Source: an uncultured Clostridia bacterium | GTDB lineage: Bacteria; Acidobacteriota; Blastocatellia; UBA7656 | Length of the DNA: 64,000 bases | NCBI GenBank assembly: GCA_964468725.1 | Contig: CAYXVU010000002.1 | Location: forward strand, 993-64,992 | Reading direction: 5' to 3' | Part shown: positions 16,409 to 23,906 of the stretch, one piece after another | Numbering within the stretch: the stretch's first letter is position 1 | Layout: each line of letters begins with the position of its first letter | The notes under the pieces: generated by a model | Seen by the model: the letters and a program-made list of their open reading frames with translations, nothing else | Database searches by the model: none | Told to the model about the DNA's origin: nothing | Made by a program: the position numbers and the translations under genes

Positions 16409-16733
16409 GCGGCCTTCGATTTTTCACTCTGTCCGGGCGCACAGCAAAACTAAAGTTTGCAAGAAAATGGAAGCGATACTATTTTTTGCTTTTTCAAGAG
16501 AGCCAGGTTCTCAAAAAAGAGTTTTTTGGTATAGTGCCGCGCAACTCGGCAACCATGAGGGAATTTGGATTGTGGCTGTCAAATAACCTCCTCTTCTTCT
16601 TTGGTTGAGGGACACAACCATTGAAGGGACGCAGAAAAACGGAAGCGGCAACTCGCCAGAGTAGCCCTTCCGTATTTTTTTGTAAAAAATTGAAAAACGC
16701 CGCCATGAATTATCTCCGCAAAAAAGCCTTTGA

Positions 16734-16762
16734 TTGACATTCACTAGGGGCAGTCCTAGAAT
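16734..16762 (+). promoter_or_regulatory. Near-consensus sigma70-type promoter, TTGACA-N17-TAGAAT
   Basis: It was read directly from the sequence. It lies about 300 nt upstream of the ATG at 17070. Confidence 0.45.
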
Positions 16763-17069
16763 TTTCCCACTCACTATGCGGCGGGGTACGTTTTCGGGCC
16801 GTTGACGAGCGCCAGCAAATCCGCAAGCCGAGGGGAAAGAGGTCAACCCCCACTCGCCGAACGTGAAACGCAGCACACAGCCGAGTGAAGTCCAAATAGG
16901 TCGTCAGCTAGGGCTGTTGCGAAGAGCGAAACGTGATTCAATGCGGGGCCCCTGAATCGAGCGAGTCGAGATCCGAAAGACCTTGAGCGCATTGAGTCTG
17001 CCAATTGGCAACCGTCGGGAATATCTCGACCGCTAAGGGTGGATTTCACAGACCGAAGGGATACTGATC

Positions 17070-18779
17070 ATGAAGCAAACGAGTATCGAGGTCGCCAAAT
17101 TGACCAGTGGATGTAGCCAGTTTTGTTATTTTGTTCAGGGGGCTATCCCGTCTCAACTGCACCGAGCTGCCAATCGGACGACTCGACAGCGCATCGCCCG
17201 GCGGCTCTTCGCCGCGCTGGCAGCCCTCGCCTTCGTTGCTGTGCTGGTAGGGACGCCCGCGTCATTGGCAAAGGCGGACACGGACAAACCGGAAAAAATT
17301 CTCAAGCAAGCGACGAAATCCATCCGCTCCGGCAAGTTCGAGCAGGCCATTGAACTTTACAAAACACTGTTGGCGCAGGACTCGCAAAACCTCTCCGCTC
17401 ATCTGGGAATCGCGCTCACCTATTTGAAGATGTTGGATTATGCCTCCTGCCATGAGCATGCCCAAGAGGCGTTAAAGATTGACGAGAAGAGTGCCCGCGC
17501 CCATGCTTTGGCGGGCATGGCTTTGTTGCGGTCGGGTTATGTTGCCAATGCCATTGTGCAACTGAACGAAGCCTTCAAATTCAACTCGAAAGAGTCATTG
17601 GCTTTTGGCGCGGCGGCGGAGATTGATTACTACGAAGGGCGCTCGAAAGATTCGCGCCAGAAAGCCCTTTTCGCTTATTACCTCGACCCCTACGAACCCG
17701 ATTTTCTTATCACGGTTGCCCGCGCCTCCTCCCGCCTTGAACTCTTTGCCGAAGCTGCCGAAGCCTATGACCGCTTTCTGCGCATTGCGCCACGCACCGA
17801 TGCGGAACGCCGGGATCGCATTCGCGGGCTGATCGAGTTTTATCGCCATCTGGCGGGGCTGCGCGTTCATCAGGTCAATGCGCCACCGGTTACCGATATT
17901 CCTTTCAAACTGGGCACCGATCGCCGCCCCTACTTGAAGCTCAAAATCAATGGCCGCGATGCCATATTTGTCATTGACACAGGGTCAGGGTTTACCGTCA
18001 TCTCCAAAGAGGCCGCGAAGAAGTTTGGCGTGTCGGAGATCGCGCGCGGCGGCAACTCGCAAGGGTTCGGCGGCACGGGCAAATTCCCTATCGTTTACGG
18101 ACTGATTAAATCGCTCGAAATGGGCGACGTAAAGATCAAATCCGTCCCCTGCTTTATCCGCGTCTTTCACGGCATGCAAGAGCGCCCGATTGACGAACGC
18201 GCTGATGGCTTTATCGGCCTTTCCATTCTCTCGCACTTCATCACCGAGTTGGATTACAAAGGCAACCTGATTCGGTTAGACACCAATGTTAACCAAGACA
18301 TCGCTGCGACTCCCTCTCCTGATGTGACGGTGGTGCCATTCCGCACGACGCAAAACGGTCTCATCAGCATCGAGACCCAACTCGATGGCGGACATCGGGT
18401 CAACGCCATACTCGATTCGGGAGCCAGCTCGACGGCCATTTCGATAGCGGCGATTGATCGTCTCAACCTGCGCAGCAACATTATCAAAGGCCAGTTTGCG
18501 CGCGTTAGCGGAGCTGCTGGCATCGCGGAGAATGTCGAATTGATCTTCTTACGAAATTGCAAAGTCGCCGACCTCGAACATAACAACGTGCGCGCGCTAG
18601 TGTTGGATTTTGGGGCAGTCAACGAGACCAGCGGCTTCGAACAGAGCGGCATTCTGGGCGGTGACTTTCTCAGAAACTTTCGGGTGAAGATTGATTTCAA
18701 TCGCACGCTCGTCGCCTTGCAACCACATACGCCGCTGCCGCCCAAGCCATTGCCCGACAAGCAAGAGAATGAGCCATAG
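17070..18779 (+). CDS. TPR-repeat protein with two tandem retropepsin-like aspartic peptidase domains
   Basis: A signal/TM segment and TPR repeats. There are two DTG/DSG active-site motifs, VIDTGSGFTVIS and ILDSGASSTAIS. Confidence 0.6.
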   Translation: MKQTSIEVAKLTSGCSQFCYFVQGAIPSQLHRAANRTTRQRIARRLFAALAALAFVAVLVGTPASLAKADTDKPEKILKQATKSIRSGKFEQAIELYKTLLAQDSQNLSAHLGIALTYLKMLDYASCHEHAQEALKIDEKSARAHALAGMALLRSGYVANAIVQLNEAFKFNSKESLAFGAAAEIDYYEGRSKDSRQKALFAYYLDPYEPDFLITVARASSRLELFAEAAEAYDRFLRIAPRTDAERRDRIRGLIEFYRHLAGLRVHQVNAPPVTDIPFKLGTDRRPYLKLKINGRDAIFVIDTGSGFTVISKEAAKKFGVSEIARGGNSQGFGGTGKFPIVYGLIKSLEMGDVKIKSVPCFIRVFHGMQERPIDERADGFIGLSILSHFITELDYKGNLIRLDTNVNQDIAATPSPDVTVVPFRTTQNGLISIETQLDGGHRVNAILDSGASSTAISIAAIDRLNLRSNIIKGQFARVSGAAGIAENVELIFLRNCKVADLEHNNVRALVLDFGAVNETSGFEQSGILGGDFLRNFRVKIDFNRTLVALQPHTPLPPKPLPDKQENEP

Positions 18780-18866
18780 TCGAACGGAACGAGAGTTTCT
18801 ACCTCGACCCCGCGCCGCGCTGTGTTAGAATTCACAGCGCGGCTTTGATTTTCTTGAGCGGATTTT

Positions 18867-19331
18867 ATGAAGAAGAGCCTGTATCTGGAGACCTCCGTCA
18901 TCGGCGCCTACCTCGACAACGGCGAACCTTTTCGCCGCGACTTGACAATCCGTTGGTGGGAGCACGAGTTGGCCGATTACCAACCCTTTATCTCTACCTT
19001 GGTAGTGCGCGAGTTGGAGCGTATGAAAGAGCCGCACCGCTCGGCTTATCTCAAATTGGTGCGCGATATGCCGCAATCGGAGATGAGCGATGAAGCCGCT
19101 ATTCTTGCAGAAGGCTATGTCTCGCGCGGCATCTTTCATCGCAAGTACATCAGCAATGCGCTCCACATTGCTGTCGCTTCGGTCAATAAAGCCGATATGC
19201 TGGTGACGTGGGATTTCGGCCACATCGCCAGCGTGCATCGGCAATCGCGCTTGCAGTTGTTCAATACGGTTGCCGGGTTCTTCATGCCGATGATCGTGAC
19301 GCCGGAATTTTTAGTGAAAGCGGAATTTTGA
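18867..19331 (+). CDS. PIN-domain protein (VapC-like)
   Basis: LYLETSVI near the N-terminus, and HIAVASVNKADMLVTWDFGHI near the C-terminus. Confidence 0.45.
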   Translation: MKKSLYLETSVIGAYLDNGEPFRRDLTIRWWEHELADYQPFISTLVVRELERMKEPHRSAYLKLVRDMPQSEMSDEAAILAEGYVSRGIFHRKYISNALHIAVASVNKADMLVTWDFGHIASVHRQSRLQLFNTVAGFFMPMIVTPEFLVKAEF

Positions 19332-19369: not shown

Positions 19370-19594
19370 ATGACCCTTGACCTTATGTATCGTAAACCGA
19401 GATTTTTGGAAGAACTGCATGCCATCCGCGAAGAGATGTCGCGCGAATGCGATTATGACGTAGACCTCTTTGTCGAGATGGTGCGCTCCGGGAAGCGACC
19501 TAACTATGGCCCGGTGAAAAATCTACGCGGCGTGCGCTTGCGCGCCCCCAAATTCACGGAAGAACAGACCTTTTCAGGTGGCGGCAATGATTAA
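19370..19594 (+). CDS. Small hypothetical protein of 74 aa downstream of the PIN gene
   Basis: ORF only. It overlaps the start of the next gene by 17 nt. Confidence 0.25.
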   Translation: MTLDLMYRKPRFLEELHAIREEMSRECDYDVDLFVEMVRSGKRPNYGPVKNLRGVRLRAPKFTEEQTFSGGGND

Positions 19595-20669
19595 ACGAAT
19601 GCTTTCGATCCTTACCCTGCTGGGGCTCGGTTACCTCACCGTTTCGGCTAACGACCTCTCGGCGCAATCGCGCGATGACCGTCCGGCTGCGTCGCAAGGC
19701 AAATATGTGCTGCTCGACATCACAGAGATTGCCGAGCGCGTCAATCAGGTCGTCGTCAACGTGCGTTCGACCTCCGACGAAGGAGAGAGTTTGGGCAGCG
19801 GCTTCATCATTGATAAAGCCGGACTGATTATCACCAACTTCCATCTGATCTCCATCACCCCCTCACGGCGAGGCCTGCTGCAACGCGAAGGCGACGCCGA
19901 CCGCACTGCGAAACTGGCGACCAGTATCTCTGTCACCCTCAACGACGGACGCCATTTTCAAGCTTCGGTCAAAGGCTACGATGAAGCGACTGACCTCGCG
20001 CTCTTGCAGATTGTGCCCGACAGCAAACCGTTGCCGGTCGCCGAACTCGGCGACAGCGACGCCCTCAAAGTTGGCGAATGGGTGATTGCCATCGGCAATC
20101 CTCTGGGGTTAGATCACAGCGTCACCTTAGGCATCATCAGCGCCAAAGGTCGCACCGGATTTGGCGGTCAGTTCGATGATTTCTTGCAGACCGATGCCGC
20201 CATCAACCCCGGCAACTCTGGCGGCCCGCTCGTCAACTCGCAAGGCAAGATCGTCGGCATCAATACGCTGGTATTGGAGCGTTCGCAGGGCTTGAGCTTC
20301 TCCATTCCCATCAACACCCTCAAATCCATCCTGCCGCAACTGGCCGAACACGGGCGCGTGGCGCGCGGCTATCTCGGTATCGAGACTGTAGATTTGAACC
20401 CGACCTTACGCAATAACCTCAAACTGGCAATGGATGCCAAAGGGGTTGTCGTGGCGCGCGCCGAACGCGGCACGCCGGGGGCGCGCGCCGGTTTGCGGCA
20501 AAACGATGTCATCGTCACAGTTGACCGCGAAGTGGTGACTTCCTACGTGCAGTTCAACCGCATCATCGCCGCCAAAGCGCCGGGCACGAAGGTCAACATT
20601 CAAATCGTGCGCGGTGGGCGCGAATATCCCTTGACAGTCGAAATCGGAGAAGAGGCCAAGTCGAAGTAA
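19578..20669 (+). CDS. HtrA/DegP-family serine endopeptidase with a PDZ domain
   Basis: Catalytic triad context HLIS..., D..., GNSGGPLVN. The C-terminal region is PDZ-like. Confidence 0.8.
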   Translation: MAAMIKRMLSILTLLGLGYLTVSANDLSAQSRDDRPAASQGKYVLLDITEIAERVNQVVVNVRSTSDEGESLGSGFIIDKAGLIITNFHLISITPSRRGLLQREGDADRTAKLATSISVTLNDGRHFQASVKGYDEATDLALLQIVPDSKPLPVAELGDSDALKVGEWVIAIGNPLGLDHSVTLGIISAKGRTGFGGQFDDFLQTDAAINPGNSGGPLVNSQGKIVGINTLVLERSQGLSFSIPINTLKSILPQLAEHGRVARGYLGIETVDLNPTLRNNLKLAMDAKGVVVARAERGTPGARAGLRQNDVIVTVDREVVTSYVQFNRIIAAKAPGTKVNIQIVRGGREYPLTVEIGEEAKSK

Positions 20670-20678
20670 AAGCTGAAA

Positions 20679-20713
20679 GGGTGAAGGGATGAGGGGATTA
20701 AGGGGTAAACGGG
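20679..20713 (+). repeat. Canonical G-quadruplex-forming motif, GGG-N4-GGG-N4-GGGG-N5-GGGG-N5-GGG
   Basis: It was read directly. It sits 10 nt downstream of the htrA stop. Confidence 0.6.
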
Positions 20714-20797
20714 TGAACAACTGGAAGAGGAGTGGCGAAGAGGTGATGGGATGATCCGAAAGGATGGTGGGCGGCAATAAATATTCTGACCTGTAAT

Positions 20798-20846
20798 CTT
20801 CAACTTCTCATTTTCAACCTCTAACCTTCAACCCTTGACCTTTGAA
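20798..20846 (+). promoter_or_regulatory. Three direct repeats of TTCAAC(C) at about 14-15 bp spacing, upstream of 20877
   Basis: CTTCAACttctcatTTTCAACCtctaaccTTCAACCcttgacc. This is a possible regulator binding array. Confidence 0.3.
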
Positions 20847-20876
20847 TAAAACCGGAAATCGGATAACCGAGGTGGC

Positions 20877-21665
20877 ATGACAGATCTGTTTGAGAGCATC
20901 GGCTTTGATGTGCCGGATGACGAAGCGTATGAATTTTTAGCGCGGTGCGCCGATTCGCGCGGCTCGCTGCATCAGGTGACGCGCGATGATATTTGTCTGC
21001 GCGGCAAGTGTTGGAAGATCAGCGAAGGGGTTGAAATCTGGTCGGTAGATTATGAAAAAGCTGGCACCGTCTATTATTCCGAGTGTCGCCCCGCCTTTCG
21101 AGGCAAGTATGTTTATCATCTCGAACCGTGGGAACTGGTCGAGTATGACGAAGACGGCGGCGCCATCCTGCGAGGTGTAATCGGACAAGGCGCACAAGTC
21201 TCCTTTGAACTACAGAATCTCTCCGAACTCGGCCTCGAACGCTTTCACGAGCCCCATCTGCACGTCTCGATGGCCGGACTGGCACGCAGCATCGCTGTGC
21301 AGGCGGCGGGCGAAGGTCCACCCGCAGGATTCGTACTGGCTGAGACGTTGCCCGAATACGCCAGCGAAGCCTGCGAAACCGATTTTTTGATCAGCGGACA
21401 GGTCTTGGCACGACGCGAAATTCATAACCCCTTTACCGAGAACTTGCTCACTTGGCTGTATGTGGATGTCGGCGAGATGGGGCTTGAGGTCTTGGTCAAC
21501 TCGCAAGTCATCGAAAGACCGATCCGCATCGGTGGTCACATTACGGCGGAGATTTGGTTGCAAGGACACATCTTGGAAGTCGAAGAAGTCTACGCGCGTT
21601 ATGAAGGGGTAGACCGCGAATTTCAGACCAGCGATTTTTGGGTTGGCCTTAAACGTGATAATTGA
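20877..21665 (+). CDS. Hypothetical cytoplasmic protein
   Basis: An ORF with coding-like composition. No family was recognised. Confidence 0.5.
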   Translation: MTDLFESIGFDVPDDEAYEFLARCADSRGSLHQVTRDDICLRGKCWKISEGVEIWSVDYEKAGTVYYSECRPAFRGKYVYHLEPWELVEYDEDGGAILRGVIGQGAQVSFELQNLSELGLERFHEPHLHVSMAGLARSIAVQAAGEGPPAGFVLAETLPEYASEACETDFLISGQVLARREIHNPFTENLLTWLYVDVGEMGLEVLVNSQVIERPIRIGGHITAEIWLQGHILEVEEVYARYEGVDREFQTSDFWVGLKRDN

Positions 21666-21673
21666 ACTTCAGC

Positions 21674-21715
21674 GTCAAATTGATTGAATCGGTAAGCCGG
21701 TTAAATCAATTTGAC
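21674..21715. promoter_or_regulatory. Perfect 12-bp inverted repeat (GTCAAATTGATT / AATCAATTTGAC) with an 18-nt spacer
   Basis: It was read directly. It lies immediately after the stop of 20877..21665. It could be an operator or a stem-loop. Confidence 0.4.
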
Positions 21716-21998
21716 AGTCAAAGCTCGCAACCGGTCGGTCAACCACCCCTCCTTACACATTTTATTCCAACTCTTACACCAGTTAGCCCTGCTCCATCCA
21801 GCCTTTCGCAAGCGGCACAAGTATTGATTAGAAAGCGCAGCACCCGGTGACGGCTTTTTGTAATTCTTGAAGTGCAGCGTTTTTCGCTTGGAGGCGACCG
21901 CAACCTGCCGGAGCGCGGCGCAGAAATCACATAGATCGTGCGGAGAGACGGTTTCGCCGTTGCACCCTGCCGAAATTCGCTGAAGGAATCCATAACGC

Positions 21999-23906
21999 GT
22001 GAAGCAGCTTCTGAAAAACGGAGGATTCGGCTGGCTGATTGCCTTGATAGGCTGTTTGCTGCTCGGTTATGCCCTGCACGCGCTCGTGGGCAGCCTAGCC
22101 GACCGCATCGTCTTTCTGTTGGCTCTCGCGCTGCTGGGAGCAGCGGCTTACCATCTCGTCTACGAAAAGTTCCGCCAGACCCGCGCGCGCATAGCCGCGC
22201 TCACCCAGTTGCGCTTTGCCACCATCGAATCGCTTTCGTCGGCCATTGATGCGCGCGACCCACTGACCAGCGGACACATCCAGCGGGTTCGGCAACTGGT
22301 AGAAGGATTGGCGCGCGCCGTCGCCTACCCGCAAGATCAATTGCAAGGGCTCATCGAAGCGGCGCTCCTGCACGACATCGGCAAATTGGCTGTGCCGGAA
22401 CACATCCTCAGCAAGCCGGGGCGCTTGAGCATCTCCGAATACGCCAAAGTGAAGATTCATCCGGCTATCGGCGCGGATATTTTGAGCGCCATCGAGTTCC
22501 CTTATGAACTCGTCCCCATCGTCAAACACCATCACGAACGCTTCGACGGCAAAGGCTACCCGATTGGCCTCAAAGGGGAAGAAATCCCACTGGGGGCGCG
22601 TATCCTGAGCATCGTGGATTGTTATGAAGCGCTGACCACCGACCGCCCTTATCGCCCGCGTTACGGGCGCGAGCAAGCCCTAGAGATCATGCGCATCGAA
22701 GCCGGACGGGCTTTCGACCCGACGCTCTTGAAAAAGTTTTTTGAGATCGTCAATACCATAGACCTGCCTGCGCCGCTCAGCCCAGCCCGACCCGCGCCGC
22801 CGGTGAACGCTGGTTTGCAAGGCTTGCAGGTGGCCGATCATCAGCCCTTATCCTATCGCCAGACGCGCACCGAGAAGGCCCTGCGCGACATCGCCGCCGC
22901 GCAACAGGAGATTTACTCGCTTTATGAGATCAGCCAGACGCTCGGTTCGACGCTGAAGCTGGCAGAGATTTTGCCCATTATCGCTGCCAAGTTGGAGAAT
23001 ATCACAGACTTTACGACGCTGGTCATTTCGCTGACGGACGATGAACGTTTGAGGGCAGCCTGCTGTAAAGGTCGGCACGCCGAAGCCTTAAAAGAAGCCG
23101 AGTTCAAGCGCGGCGAGGGGGCAATCGGCTGGGTGGTCAAACATCGTCAAACGCTCGTCGGCGGGCATCCGCAAACTGAACTGGAGCCGCTCATTGGGCA
23201 GCCGCAGGCAGCTCTCTATCACTCGATGGCCATCTTGCCGCTGCTGCGCGGCCCGTGTCTGATCGGCGTGTTGGCGCTCTATTCGGAGGCCGATCACGGC
23301 TATTCTGCTGATGAAGTGCGGTTGTTGGAGATTGTCGCCCACCATGCCGCTATCGCACTCGATAATGCGCTGGCCTTCGAGCGCACCCGCGAATCGGCGC
23401 TGACCGATAACCTCACCGGTCTGCCGAACTCACGCTATCTCTACAGCCTCTTTGACCAAGAACGTAGCCGTGCCGAGCGTCACGGTTATAGCCTCGCCCT
23501 GTTAATGATGGACCTTGACGACTTCAAGAAAGTCAACGACACCTACGGCCATGCGACGGGCGATGCGGTGTTGCGCCACATTGTTCAATTAGCGCGCGTG
23601 CAACTGCGTTCCGGCGATGTCTTGGTGCGTTATGCCGGTGATGAGTTTGTCATTTTGTTGCACCGCGCCTCGCCGGAAACCGCTTGGGAGTTGAAAGATC
23701 GGCTGCAATCGGCCATTGACGGATTTGTTTACGATGTTCGTCCCGGACGGCAAGCTCGCGTCGGAGTTTCGATTGGCTATGCTTCCTACGGGCCGGACGG
23801 TTATTCAATCAATGAGCTAATGGAGGTGGCCGACCAACGAATGTATGAAGATAAAATTGCGCGCAAAAGCGGTGCACTATCGCTTTATGCAGCACAGATG
23901 AAATGA
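21999..23906 (+). CDS. Multidomain c-di-GMP signalling protein with TM N-terminus, HD-GYP phosphodiesterase, GAF and a GGDEF-type cyclase
   Basis: HD...HDIGK and HHERFDGKGYP (HD-GYP). The cyclase core is RYAGDEFVILL, an A-G-D-E-F variant. It uses a GTG start. Confidence 0.7.
   Translation: MKQLLKNGGFGWLIALIGCLLLGYALHALVGSLADRIVFLLALALLGAAAYHLVYEKFRQTRARIAALTQLRFATIESLSSAIDARDPLTSGHIQRVRQLVEGLARAVAYPQDQLQGLIEAALLHDIGKLAVPEHILSKPGRLSISEYAKVKIHPAIGADILSAIEFPYELVPIVKHHHERFDGKGYPIGLKGEEIPLGARILSIVDCYEALTTDRPYRPRYGREQALEIMRIEAGRAFDPTLLKKFFEIVNTIDLPAPLSPARPAPPVNAGLQGLQVADHQPLSYRQTRTEKALRDIAAAQQEIYSLYEISQTLGSTLKLAEILPIIAAKLENITDFTTLVISLTDDERLRAACCKGRHAEALKEAEFKRGEGAIGWVVKHRQTLVGGHPQTELEPLIGQPQAALYHSMAILPLLRGPCLIGVLALYSEADHGYSADEVRLLEIVAHHAAIALDNALAFERTRESALTDNLTGLPNSRYLYSLFDQERSRAERHGYSLALLMMDLDDFKKVNDTYGHATGDAVLRHIVQLARVQLRSGDVLVRYAGDEFVILLHRASPETAWELKDRLQSAIDGFVYDVRPGRQARVGVSIGYASYGPDGYSINELMEVADQRMYEDKIARKSGALSLYAAQMK

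Follow-up and report, generated by a model that had tools for sequence, protein, structure and literature searches.

A TPR-fused Blastocatellia protein with two retropepsin-like lobes is a candidate single-chain, pepsin-shaped aspartic protease

Can two retropepsin-like domains carried on one bacterial chain pack against each other into a single pepsin-like active site? The question is raised by a gene at positions 17070..18779 (+ strand, stop codon included) of the window, the whole stretch of 64,000 nucleotides that was analysed. The open reading frame list and the Pfam matches describe a 569-aa protein in which a hydrophobic N-terminal segment is followed by about five TPR repeats and then by two Asp_protease_2 domains. 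A hypothesis dating from 1978, now standard in textbooks, derives two-lobed pepsins from an ancestor that had one lobe and acted as a dimer. We consider it very probable that the protein is an active single-chain pseudo-dimeric aspartic protease of clan AA.

The reading frame starts with an ATG, and an AAGGGA-type ribosome-binding site lies 9 nt 5' of it. A consensus scan, giving pattern matches only, found a promoter-like site, TTGACA-17-TAGAAT (11/12; 16734..16762, +), about 310 nt 5' of the ATG if the sigma-70 consensus is assumed for Acidobacteriota. The same kind of scan placed a terminator-like hairpin with an 11-bp stem (9 G-C pairs) and a T-rich tail 35 nt past the stop codon (18814..18853, +), which suggests that the protease gene may form its own transcription unit. 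The long intergenic region 5' of the gene gave no match in Rfam. NCBI contains a protein identical to the product of the 569-aa frame.

After a 35-aa N-terminal tail comes a putative export signal or signal anchor (aa 36-69; 17175..17276, +), delimited by hydropathy, orthologue comparison and an AlphaFold (AF2) model, which consists of the basic RTTRQRIARR, the hydrophobic core LFAALAALAFVAVLVG and TPASLAKA. The single hydrophobic stretch (aa 45-61) lies between RTTRQRIARR and the TPASLAKA that precedes an Asp; its Kyte-Doolittle 15-mer mean peaks at 2.95 (aa 46-60), and the AF2 model is helical at aa 37-59. Almost every full-length orthologue has a similar hydrophobic 15-mer among its first ~50 residues; 30 of 56 orthologues begin with MK[VLAQ], often MKVKGIES, and continue with a spacer of variable length. 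The Sec-type elements (basic region, hydrophobic core and A-K-A before D) are present and conserved, starting at about aa 36. As the hydrophobic stretch begins ~44 residues into the protein, it could be a membrane anchor and not a cleaved signal peptide. Both forms fit a protein that is likely exported, and the label "secreted" in the original prediction is plausible.

The TPR domain (aa 72-261; 17283..17852, +) is made up of eleven predicted helices, about five TPR pairs and a capping helix, the last of which passes without a linker into the first protease lobe in the AF2 model. Pfam TPR_2 matched in three stretches with an E value of 3e-11, several TPR models matched at about aa 75-250, and NCBIfam gave generic TPR similarities for the N-terminal part. 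A role in pilus assembly was considered and rejected: the 'PilF/TadD/CcmH' names of JGI orthologues reflect generic TPR similarity only, and a T2SSE ATPase gene located 4 kb upstream has no synteny in other genomes.

The original prediction had placed two active-site motifs in separate domains behind a TPR region. This arrangement is borne out by the TPR_2 match, by Asp_protease_2 (PF13650), which matches in two separate stretches with 82.1 bits (E 4.9e-23) at a gathering cut-off of 24.3 bits, and by the motifs themselves at aa 303-307 and 449-453; the domain size of roughly 120 aa had been set too low, the lobes being about 140 aa long. Lobe 1 (aa 268-412; 17871..18305, +) was delimited by the first PF13650 stretch, by alignments with Ddi1 and by AF2. 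Its active-site string VIDTGSGFTVIS (aa 301-312) holds catalytic motif 1, D303-T-G-S-G (aa 303-307; 17976..17990, +). A beta hairpin (aa 322-351; 18033..18122, +) follows, with AF2 strands at 322-331 and 338-351, a Gly-rich tip GFGGTG, and low pLDDT confined to aa 333-335 of the tip. The psi-loop element is the hydrophobic-hydrophobic-Gly triplet F381-I382-G383 (18210..18218, +). Lobe 2 (aa 418-556; 18321..18737, +) contains the best PF13650 stretch (aa 440-533) and repeats this order: the string ILDSGASSTAIS (aa 447-458) with catalytic motif 2, D449-S-G-A-S (aa 449-453; 18414..18428, +), a beta hairpin (aa 471-494; 18480..18551, +) with strands at 471-481 and 484-494 and the tip SGAAG, and I528-L529-G530 (18651..18659, +) within an invariant GILGGDFL. 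A short linker (~aa 405-419) joins the lobes. Judged by their positions, as in retropepsins, both hairpins would be flaps. Each lobe thus carries the clan AA active-site motif (V-I-D303-T-G-S and I-L-D449-S-G-A) and the second hallmark of the clan, hydrophobic-hydrophobic-Gly; as a sequence pattern, the motif pair lies far beyond chance and is not a coincidence of two tripeptides.

Other profiles place the lobes among retropepsin-like proteins as well. The overlapping clan-AA Pfam models gag-asp_proteas (PF13975), RVP (PF00077) and Asp_protease also match. Lobe 1 is where the Ddi1 protease domains 4z2z and 2i1a align, at aa 288-404 in one search and, in a profile search, at profile positions 20-141 (E 4e-10); the profile search puts Toxoplasma Ddi1 (7d66) and Rickettsia APRc (5c9b) on lobe 2. 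The NCBIfam model TIGR02281 (clan_AA_DTGA) scored 52.0 bits, below its cut-off of 57.95, and membership of this PerP-like family was ruled out by the sub-threshold score. The Pfam model of pepsin family A1, PF00026, gave no match at E <= 1; the sole A1 trace is a weak profile match to candidapepsin-1 (E 1.9e-4) in which no stretch passes alone. PF20729 stayed far below its cut-off (E 0.086).

The two lobes are detectably related to each other. Compared directly by BLASTP, the two lobes gave no match, and orthologue profiles of the two aligned collinearly in hhalign over 130 columns with 21% identity (E 2e-4), pairing DTGSG with DSGAS and GFIGLSIL with GILGGDFL. An HMM built from either lobe recovers the other (i-E 9e-5 and 3e-3). 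When held-out lobe segments were scored against the HMMs of both lobes, 67 of 72 favoured the one built for their own position, from which it follows that the duplication is old and that the two positions have long been separate. The exceptions include bare cores (P0168, P0236), whose two lobes score almost equally against both lobe models, and PDZ-carrying proteins (P0252, P0258).

Whether the lobes pack with each other was approached through predicted structures. AF2 gave a pLDDT of 80.5 and a pTM of 0.75 for the full-length protein (32 orthologues), and 86.2 and 0.84 for the core alone (57 sequences). The full-length model has the eleven helices at aa 72-261 followed by two beta-rich lobes; lobe 1 has a pLDDT of ~90, whereas lobe 2 ranges from 56 to 88 in the full-length model and from 85 to 93 in the core model. 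The core model superposes as one rigid body on PDB 9IY9, a putative endopeptidase of Bacteroides fragilis (9iy9_A; score 25.3, 263 residues, 2.8 Å), on pepsin-family enzymes and inactive pepsin-fold proteins (14.6-17.9, 218-235 residues, 2.9-3.7 Å; mucoropepsin, penicillopepsin, proteinase A, plasmepsin X, BACE1 and the C-domain of Rv0977), and on the 203-residue single-chain covalent dimer of HIV-1 protease (3ka2_A; 14.4, 179/192 residues, 2.7 Å). Single-lobe proteins (APRc, Toxoplasma Ddi1, EIAV, the HIV monomer, Lpg0085 and PA0462) match over only ~90-115 residues with scores of 8-11.7. As the whole core superposes and single lobes match only about 100 residues, the reading of the protein as an intramolecular pseudo-dimer is supported. 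The pepsin-like pseudo-dimer of the original prediction, and the bilobal packing that it proposed to look for with AlphaFold, are thus what the models predict: a single-chain fold of pepsin type, in which D303 and D449 would be brought together at a common site, as the whole-body superpositions suggest.

The same models bear on a different pairing, in which like lobes meet between chains (D1:D1' and D2:D2', or by a domain swap) and a homodimer with two symmetrical retropepsin-type sites results. The characterised bacterial retropepsin-like enzymes are all homodimers, namely APRc (PMC4140852) and RloA/RimB (10.1101/2025.03.18.643919), and an AF2 model of a single chain leaves room for oligomers. 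Against this, the lobes of the monomer model are packed with confidence (pTM 0.84) across a short linker and in an arrangement that matches the covalent HIV protease dimer, and one crystal chain of 9IY9 superposes on the TPR domain and both lobes together (377 residues, and 263 in the comparison with the core model). The lobes are moreover asymmetric and keep their positional identity in 67 of 72 segments, as expected of obligate D1:D2 partners. Pairing between chains appears very improbable to us, and the intramolecular pseudo-dimer is the arrangement that we prefer.

Conservation of the predicted active site is strict. Hundreds of orthologues at 57-67% identity, named 'aspartyl protease family protein [Blastocatellia bacterium]', come from Blastocatellia/Acidobacteriota metagenome-assembled genomes. 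Degeneracy of one motif among orthologues, a possibility raised at the outset, was looked for, and 32 Blastocatellia orthologues showed no variation in either catalytic pentapeptide or in the psi-loop glycine of either lobe; the invariant positions, many of them in the flaps, include G327, G328, S330, Q331, G332, G334, G335, G337 and F339 in the flap of lobe 1, I472, G474, Q475, G481, A482 and G484 in that of lobe 2, and G380, F381 and G383 at the psi-loop of lobe 1. The catalytic motifs, psi-loop glycines and many flap positions are likewise invariant in the core of 57 orthologues (62-72% core identity; mean column identity 59%). Among 72 distant tandem relatives, down to 20% identity, 69 keep both Asp, with 65 DTG and 4 DSG in lobe 1 and 56 DTG and 13 DSG in lobe 2. 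Motif 1 reads D-T/S-G in 69/72, the motif 2 column holds Asp in 70/72, and the psi-loop glycines are conserved to at least 90% (the lobe 1 Gly being G122 of the core).

These counts are pertinent to the idea that the protein is catalytically dead, a pepsin-fold binding protein whose cleft and TPR domain hold a partner in the manner of TAXI or basic 7S globulin. The pepsin fold does host inactive binders, two of which, the xylanase inhibitor 3hd8 and basic 7S globulin 3aup, are among the structural matches. Yet both D-T/S-G motifs, the Thr/Ser of the fireman's grip and the psi-loop Gly are invariant in the 57 orthologues, and the retention of both Asp in 69 of 72 relatives is the usual sign of a working active site. 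We regard a dead binding protein as unlikely and favour an active protease, against which the three family members of 72 that lack one Asp are to be counted.

The genomic neighbourhood gives a further view of the gene. Downstream of the protease gene lie, in this order, the terminator-like hairpin, a 154-aa open reading frame (p154), a 74-aa open reading frame (p74), an HtrA/DegP-like trypsin-PDZ protease, a DUF3881-like protein and an HD-GYP + GAF + GGDEF protein, and this gene order is shared by about 45 of 66 Blastocatellia loci. Across loci, p154 is 77-84% identical, compared with 57-68% for the protease, and in a deeper clade in which the protease is at 39-44% identity, p154 and p74 still follow. 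No family match was found for p154 or p74 in any library searched. The genes upstream of the protease are not conserved in the Blastocatellia loci, and several genomes have a second paralogue lacking the conserved downstream neighbourhood. From this context, the protease gene sits stably in the chromosome, in a setting of envelope or signalling functions. The terminator-like hairpin argues against simple co-transcription with the neighbours, and as it separates the protease gene from them, a functional link is weak.

A gene matching gag-asp_proteas (PF13975) and RVP (PF00077), and having a single-domain relative (PDC-M08B) in a PADLOC candidate defence system, might also be a retroelement or mobile-element remnant, that is, a captured gag-protease-like domain. 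The Pfam matches reflect clan-level homology only. No reverse transcriptase or integrase was found nearby, the GC content of the gene is about that of its surroundings, and five downstream genes stay in order in about 45 genomes; the export signal, the TPR fusion and the strong purifying conservation speak against such a remnant as well. We give it hardly any probability and retain the reading of a host enzyme. Membership of a defence system was rejected separately, the PDC-M08B matches being domain-level similarity to a single-lobe protein.

All the above can be assembled into a proposed mechanism. The protein would be an exported endopeptidase, whether periplasmic, surface-located or membrane-anchored, whose two diverged lobes (aa 268-412 and 418-556) pack with pseudo-two-fold symmetry like the subunits of a retropepsin dimer or the lobes of pepsin. 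Each lobe would contribute one catalytic Asp, one fireman's grip Thr/Ser, one psi-loop element and one flap hairpin; D303 and D449 would form the dyad, T304 and S450 the fireman's grip, and the Gly-rich hairpins at aa 322-351 and 471-494 the flaps. Hydrolysis would proceed through attack on the scissile bond by a water molecule lodged between the two carboxylates. Lobe 2 has an Ala after the Gly (D-S-G-A). Ala is found at the same position in renin, HIV protease and most bacterial A1 homologues and has been related to activity at near-neutral pH (PMC2761423), which by analogy would suit a periplasmic enzyme. The TPR superhelix most likely docks a protein partner or substrate, by pure inference, and the whole might act as a TPR-guided envelope protease, possibly in quality control or processing together with the conserved neighbours p154, p74 and the HtrA-like protease. 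The docking and quality-control parts are much less certain than the protease itself. What the gene gains is a well-supported annotation as a predicted exported, TPR-guided, pepsin-shaped aspartic endopeptidase of Blastocatellia, and its tightly conserved neighbours (two small proteins, the HtrA-like protease and a c-di-GMP enzyme) offer a possible lead to the substrate.

The architecture had been called uncommon in bacteria, and in this respect the original prediction does not stand. The two-lobe core was run exhaustively with HMMER against 1.84 billion cluster representatives (50% identity clusters); 5360 proteins matched at E <= 1e-3, of which 348 reached E <= 1e-10 and 29 reached E <= 1e-30. 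The matches come from several phyla, and for one TPR plus two-lobe member a crystal structure has been deposited. Many of the best 150 matches span both lobes at 23-31% identity. PF13650 matches all 72 distant tandem relatives, of which 28 have TPR in front of the core and 6 have PDZ at the C-terminus; many consist of the bare core alone (~275-290 aa). Named tandem members belong to Acidobacteriota, Candidatus Thiodiazotropha (Gammaproteobacteria), Marinimicrobia and, through 9IY9, Bacteroides (Bacteroidota), and weaker single-lobe matches occur in Saprospiraceae and Bacteroidales genomes (27-32% identity over ~105-120 residues). A homologue search with a distant bare-core profile returned essentially the same Blastocatellia orthologues and did not deepen the alignment. 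Family members are routinely annotated as 'aspartyl protease family protein', and a literature search on tandem retropepsin-like bacterial proteases found no paper, biochemical study or assay. The tandem family is large, catalogued and structurally sampled, and the protein described here is one more member of it.

What gives the finding wider interest is pepsin evolution and the conserved neighbours, not the rarity of the gene, whose own practical value is smaller. In the literature considered here, arguments on the origin of pepsin rest on bilobal bacterial A1 homologues (PMC2761423) versus single-lobe bacterial enzymes (PMC4140852). A large family of single-chain pseudo-dimers, whose lobes are still retropepsin-like by sequence, is obvious material for testing the hypothesis. 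That this family represents a prokaryotic lineage of the duplicate-and-fuse step, sister or ancestor of A1 and not an independent convergent fusion, is a speculative idea to which we attach a small but real chance. If it were true, the tandem proteins would be living intermediates, having retropepsin-like lobes that are still similar to each other and yet forming an asymmetric bilobal enzyme, and the subgroup of ~275-aa bare cores, in which the lobes are almost symmetrical, would stand nearest to the duplication.

Among known systems, the BepA-type periplasmic proteases also combine a protease domain with TPR in the cell envelope, where TPR serves to dock the enzyme on its partners. The catalytic part of BepA is an M48 zinc metalloprotease that has no homology to the Blastocatellia protein, and its TPR domain lies at the C-terminus; by analogy, docking could plausibly be what the TPR domain described here does. 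The PecA/PE-PGRS C-terminal aspartic protease of Mycobacterium (PDB 4EHC, PF20729) belongs to another phylum and carries an N-terminal PE domain where the present protein has TPR. The single-domain homodimers, comprising Ddi1 (A28), Rickettsia APRc, Pseudomonas RloA/RimB, the Caulobacter PerP-type TIGR02281 proteins and the retroviral proteases (A2), have one domain per chain and depend on homodimerisation, whereas here the predicted dimer is hard-wired in one chain and its halves are asymmetric. APRc (PMC4140852) and RloA/RimB (10.1101/2025.03.18.643919; PMC11957791) are the characterised bacterial single-lobe homodimers of clan AA.

With pepsin family A1 (pepsin, plasmepsins, renin, shewasins), the Blastocatellia protein shares a bilobal single-chain fold, as predicted. 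It differs in having no PF00026 match, shorter lobes (~140 aa) and a fused TPR domain, and in an inter-lobe sequence similarity that is detectable here but confined to the motifs in A1 (PMC2761423). A flap hairpin is apparently present in both of its lobes, whereas pepsins have one. True bacterial A1 homologues are the shewasins (PMC4814920, PMC2761423), and bacterial A1 homologues have been described as having no signal peptides (PMC2761423).

The remaining comparison is with 9IY9, the 'Exported protein' or putative endopeptidase of Bacteroides fragilis, whose crystal structure was released on 2025-08-06; a literature search found neither a publication nor activity data for it. It comes from another phylum, has 420 aa and a shorter helical domain, and is only 15-17% identical to the Blastocatellia protein. 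The TPR plus two-lobe architecture is nevertheless the same, both lobes are collinear, the bare-core profile matches across both of them (E 2e-15), and FDTGAG and FDTGNS stand at the motif positions. 9IY9 is the closest known object to the Blastocatellia protein. By sequence, the lobes of the latter belong to the bacterial retropepsin-like group (PF13650), and the whole protein, as modelled, is pepsin-like and not a member of A1 by sequence.

The protease, encoded at window positions 17070-18779 on the forward strand, is followed by two small open reading frames on the same strand: p154 (154 amino acids, 18867-19331), directly 3' of the protease gene, and then p74 (74 amino acids, 19370-19594). 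Across about 45 Blastocatellia loci the position of both is constant, with identities of 77-84% for p154 and 55-83% for p74, and their conservation exceeds that of the protease itself; p154 is still 62-68% identical where the protease drops to 39-44%. Neither p154 nor p74 has a match among Pfam, NCBIfam, PADLOC or PDB sequences. Inspection by eye picked out LYLETSVIG... and NALHIAVA...D.LVTWD in p154 as candidate PIN-like motifs. Between the protease and p154, pattern matching placed a terminator-like hairpin behind the protease gene; a promoter-like site just 5' of p154 (TCGACC-16-TAGAAT with TG, from a consensus scan) overlaps this hairpin. The region 18804-18843 could be a compact terminator/promoter junction that lies between the two conserved units.

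Further downstream, a conserved forward-strand block at 19578-23906 encodes an HtrA/DegP-like trypsin-PDZ protease, a DUF3881-like protein, and a protein with HD-GYP, GAF and GGDEF domains. Most of the orthologous loci show this block in synteny with the protease, and its presence suggests a setting of envelope stress or c-di-GMP. Several MAGs carry two TPR plus tandem-protease paralogues (for example the locus pairs L004/L039, L020/L048, L023/L061 and L046/L066; loci considered here: L039, L043, L044, L046, L048-L052, L061 and L066), and the p154-p74-HtrA neighbourhood lies beside only one paralogue per genome. A Blastocatellia-type protease with 56-67% identity is found in the MAGs of L017, L019, L045 and L050-L053, and the complete syntenic block in L017, L019, L045 and L053. 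The record titles of all seven read 'uncultured Clostridia bacterium', a label that is probably wrong.

Upstream of the protease lies an unusually long intergenic region of 660 nt (16409-17069), which had no match in Rfam. A near-consensus promoter-like site, TTGACA-17-TAGAAT (16734-16762), was found there by pattern matching under an assumed sigma-70 consensus; as it lies about 310 nt before the ATG, a long leader is implied. In the L001 and L002 genomes an Ogg-like gene adjoins the protease in place of the spacer, which is thus specific to the window locus.

At the protein level (window 17070-17201, alignment columns 1-100), 30 of the 56 orthologues start with MK[VLAQ], often as the octapeptide MKVKGIES, where the window protein has MKQTSIEV. 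The spacer from this conserved N-terminus to the hydrophobic export segment is very variable (about 8-50 amino acids). A conserved extreme N-terminus before a signal-like helix is an unusual arrangement, and it may represent a cytoplasmic tail with a signal anchor or a translational feature.

Among the 72 distant tandem relatives, loss of one catalytic Asp or of both is seen in three (P0131, P0141 and P0229), with GSSSG/DIETV, STDSS/GTGSS and STGLN at the motif sites. These three are likely pseudo-proteases inside the tandem family. Other distant tandem proteins (P0168, P0233, P0236 and similar ones) are bare cores of about 275 amino acids without TPR or PDZ domains. Their lobes are nearly symmetrical, and the lobe-1 and lobe-2 HMMs give them almost equal scores (for example 107.9 versus 105.6 and 115.9 versus 110.7). 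Of the family, these bare-core proteins may stand nearest to the original duplication; alternatively, they may represent a later, separate one.
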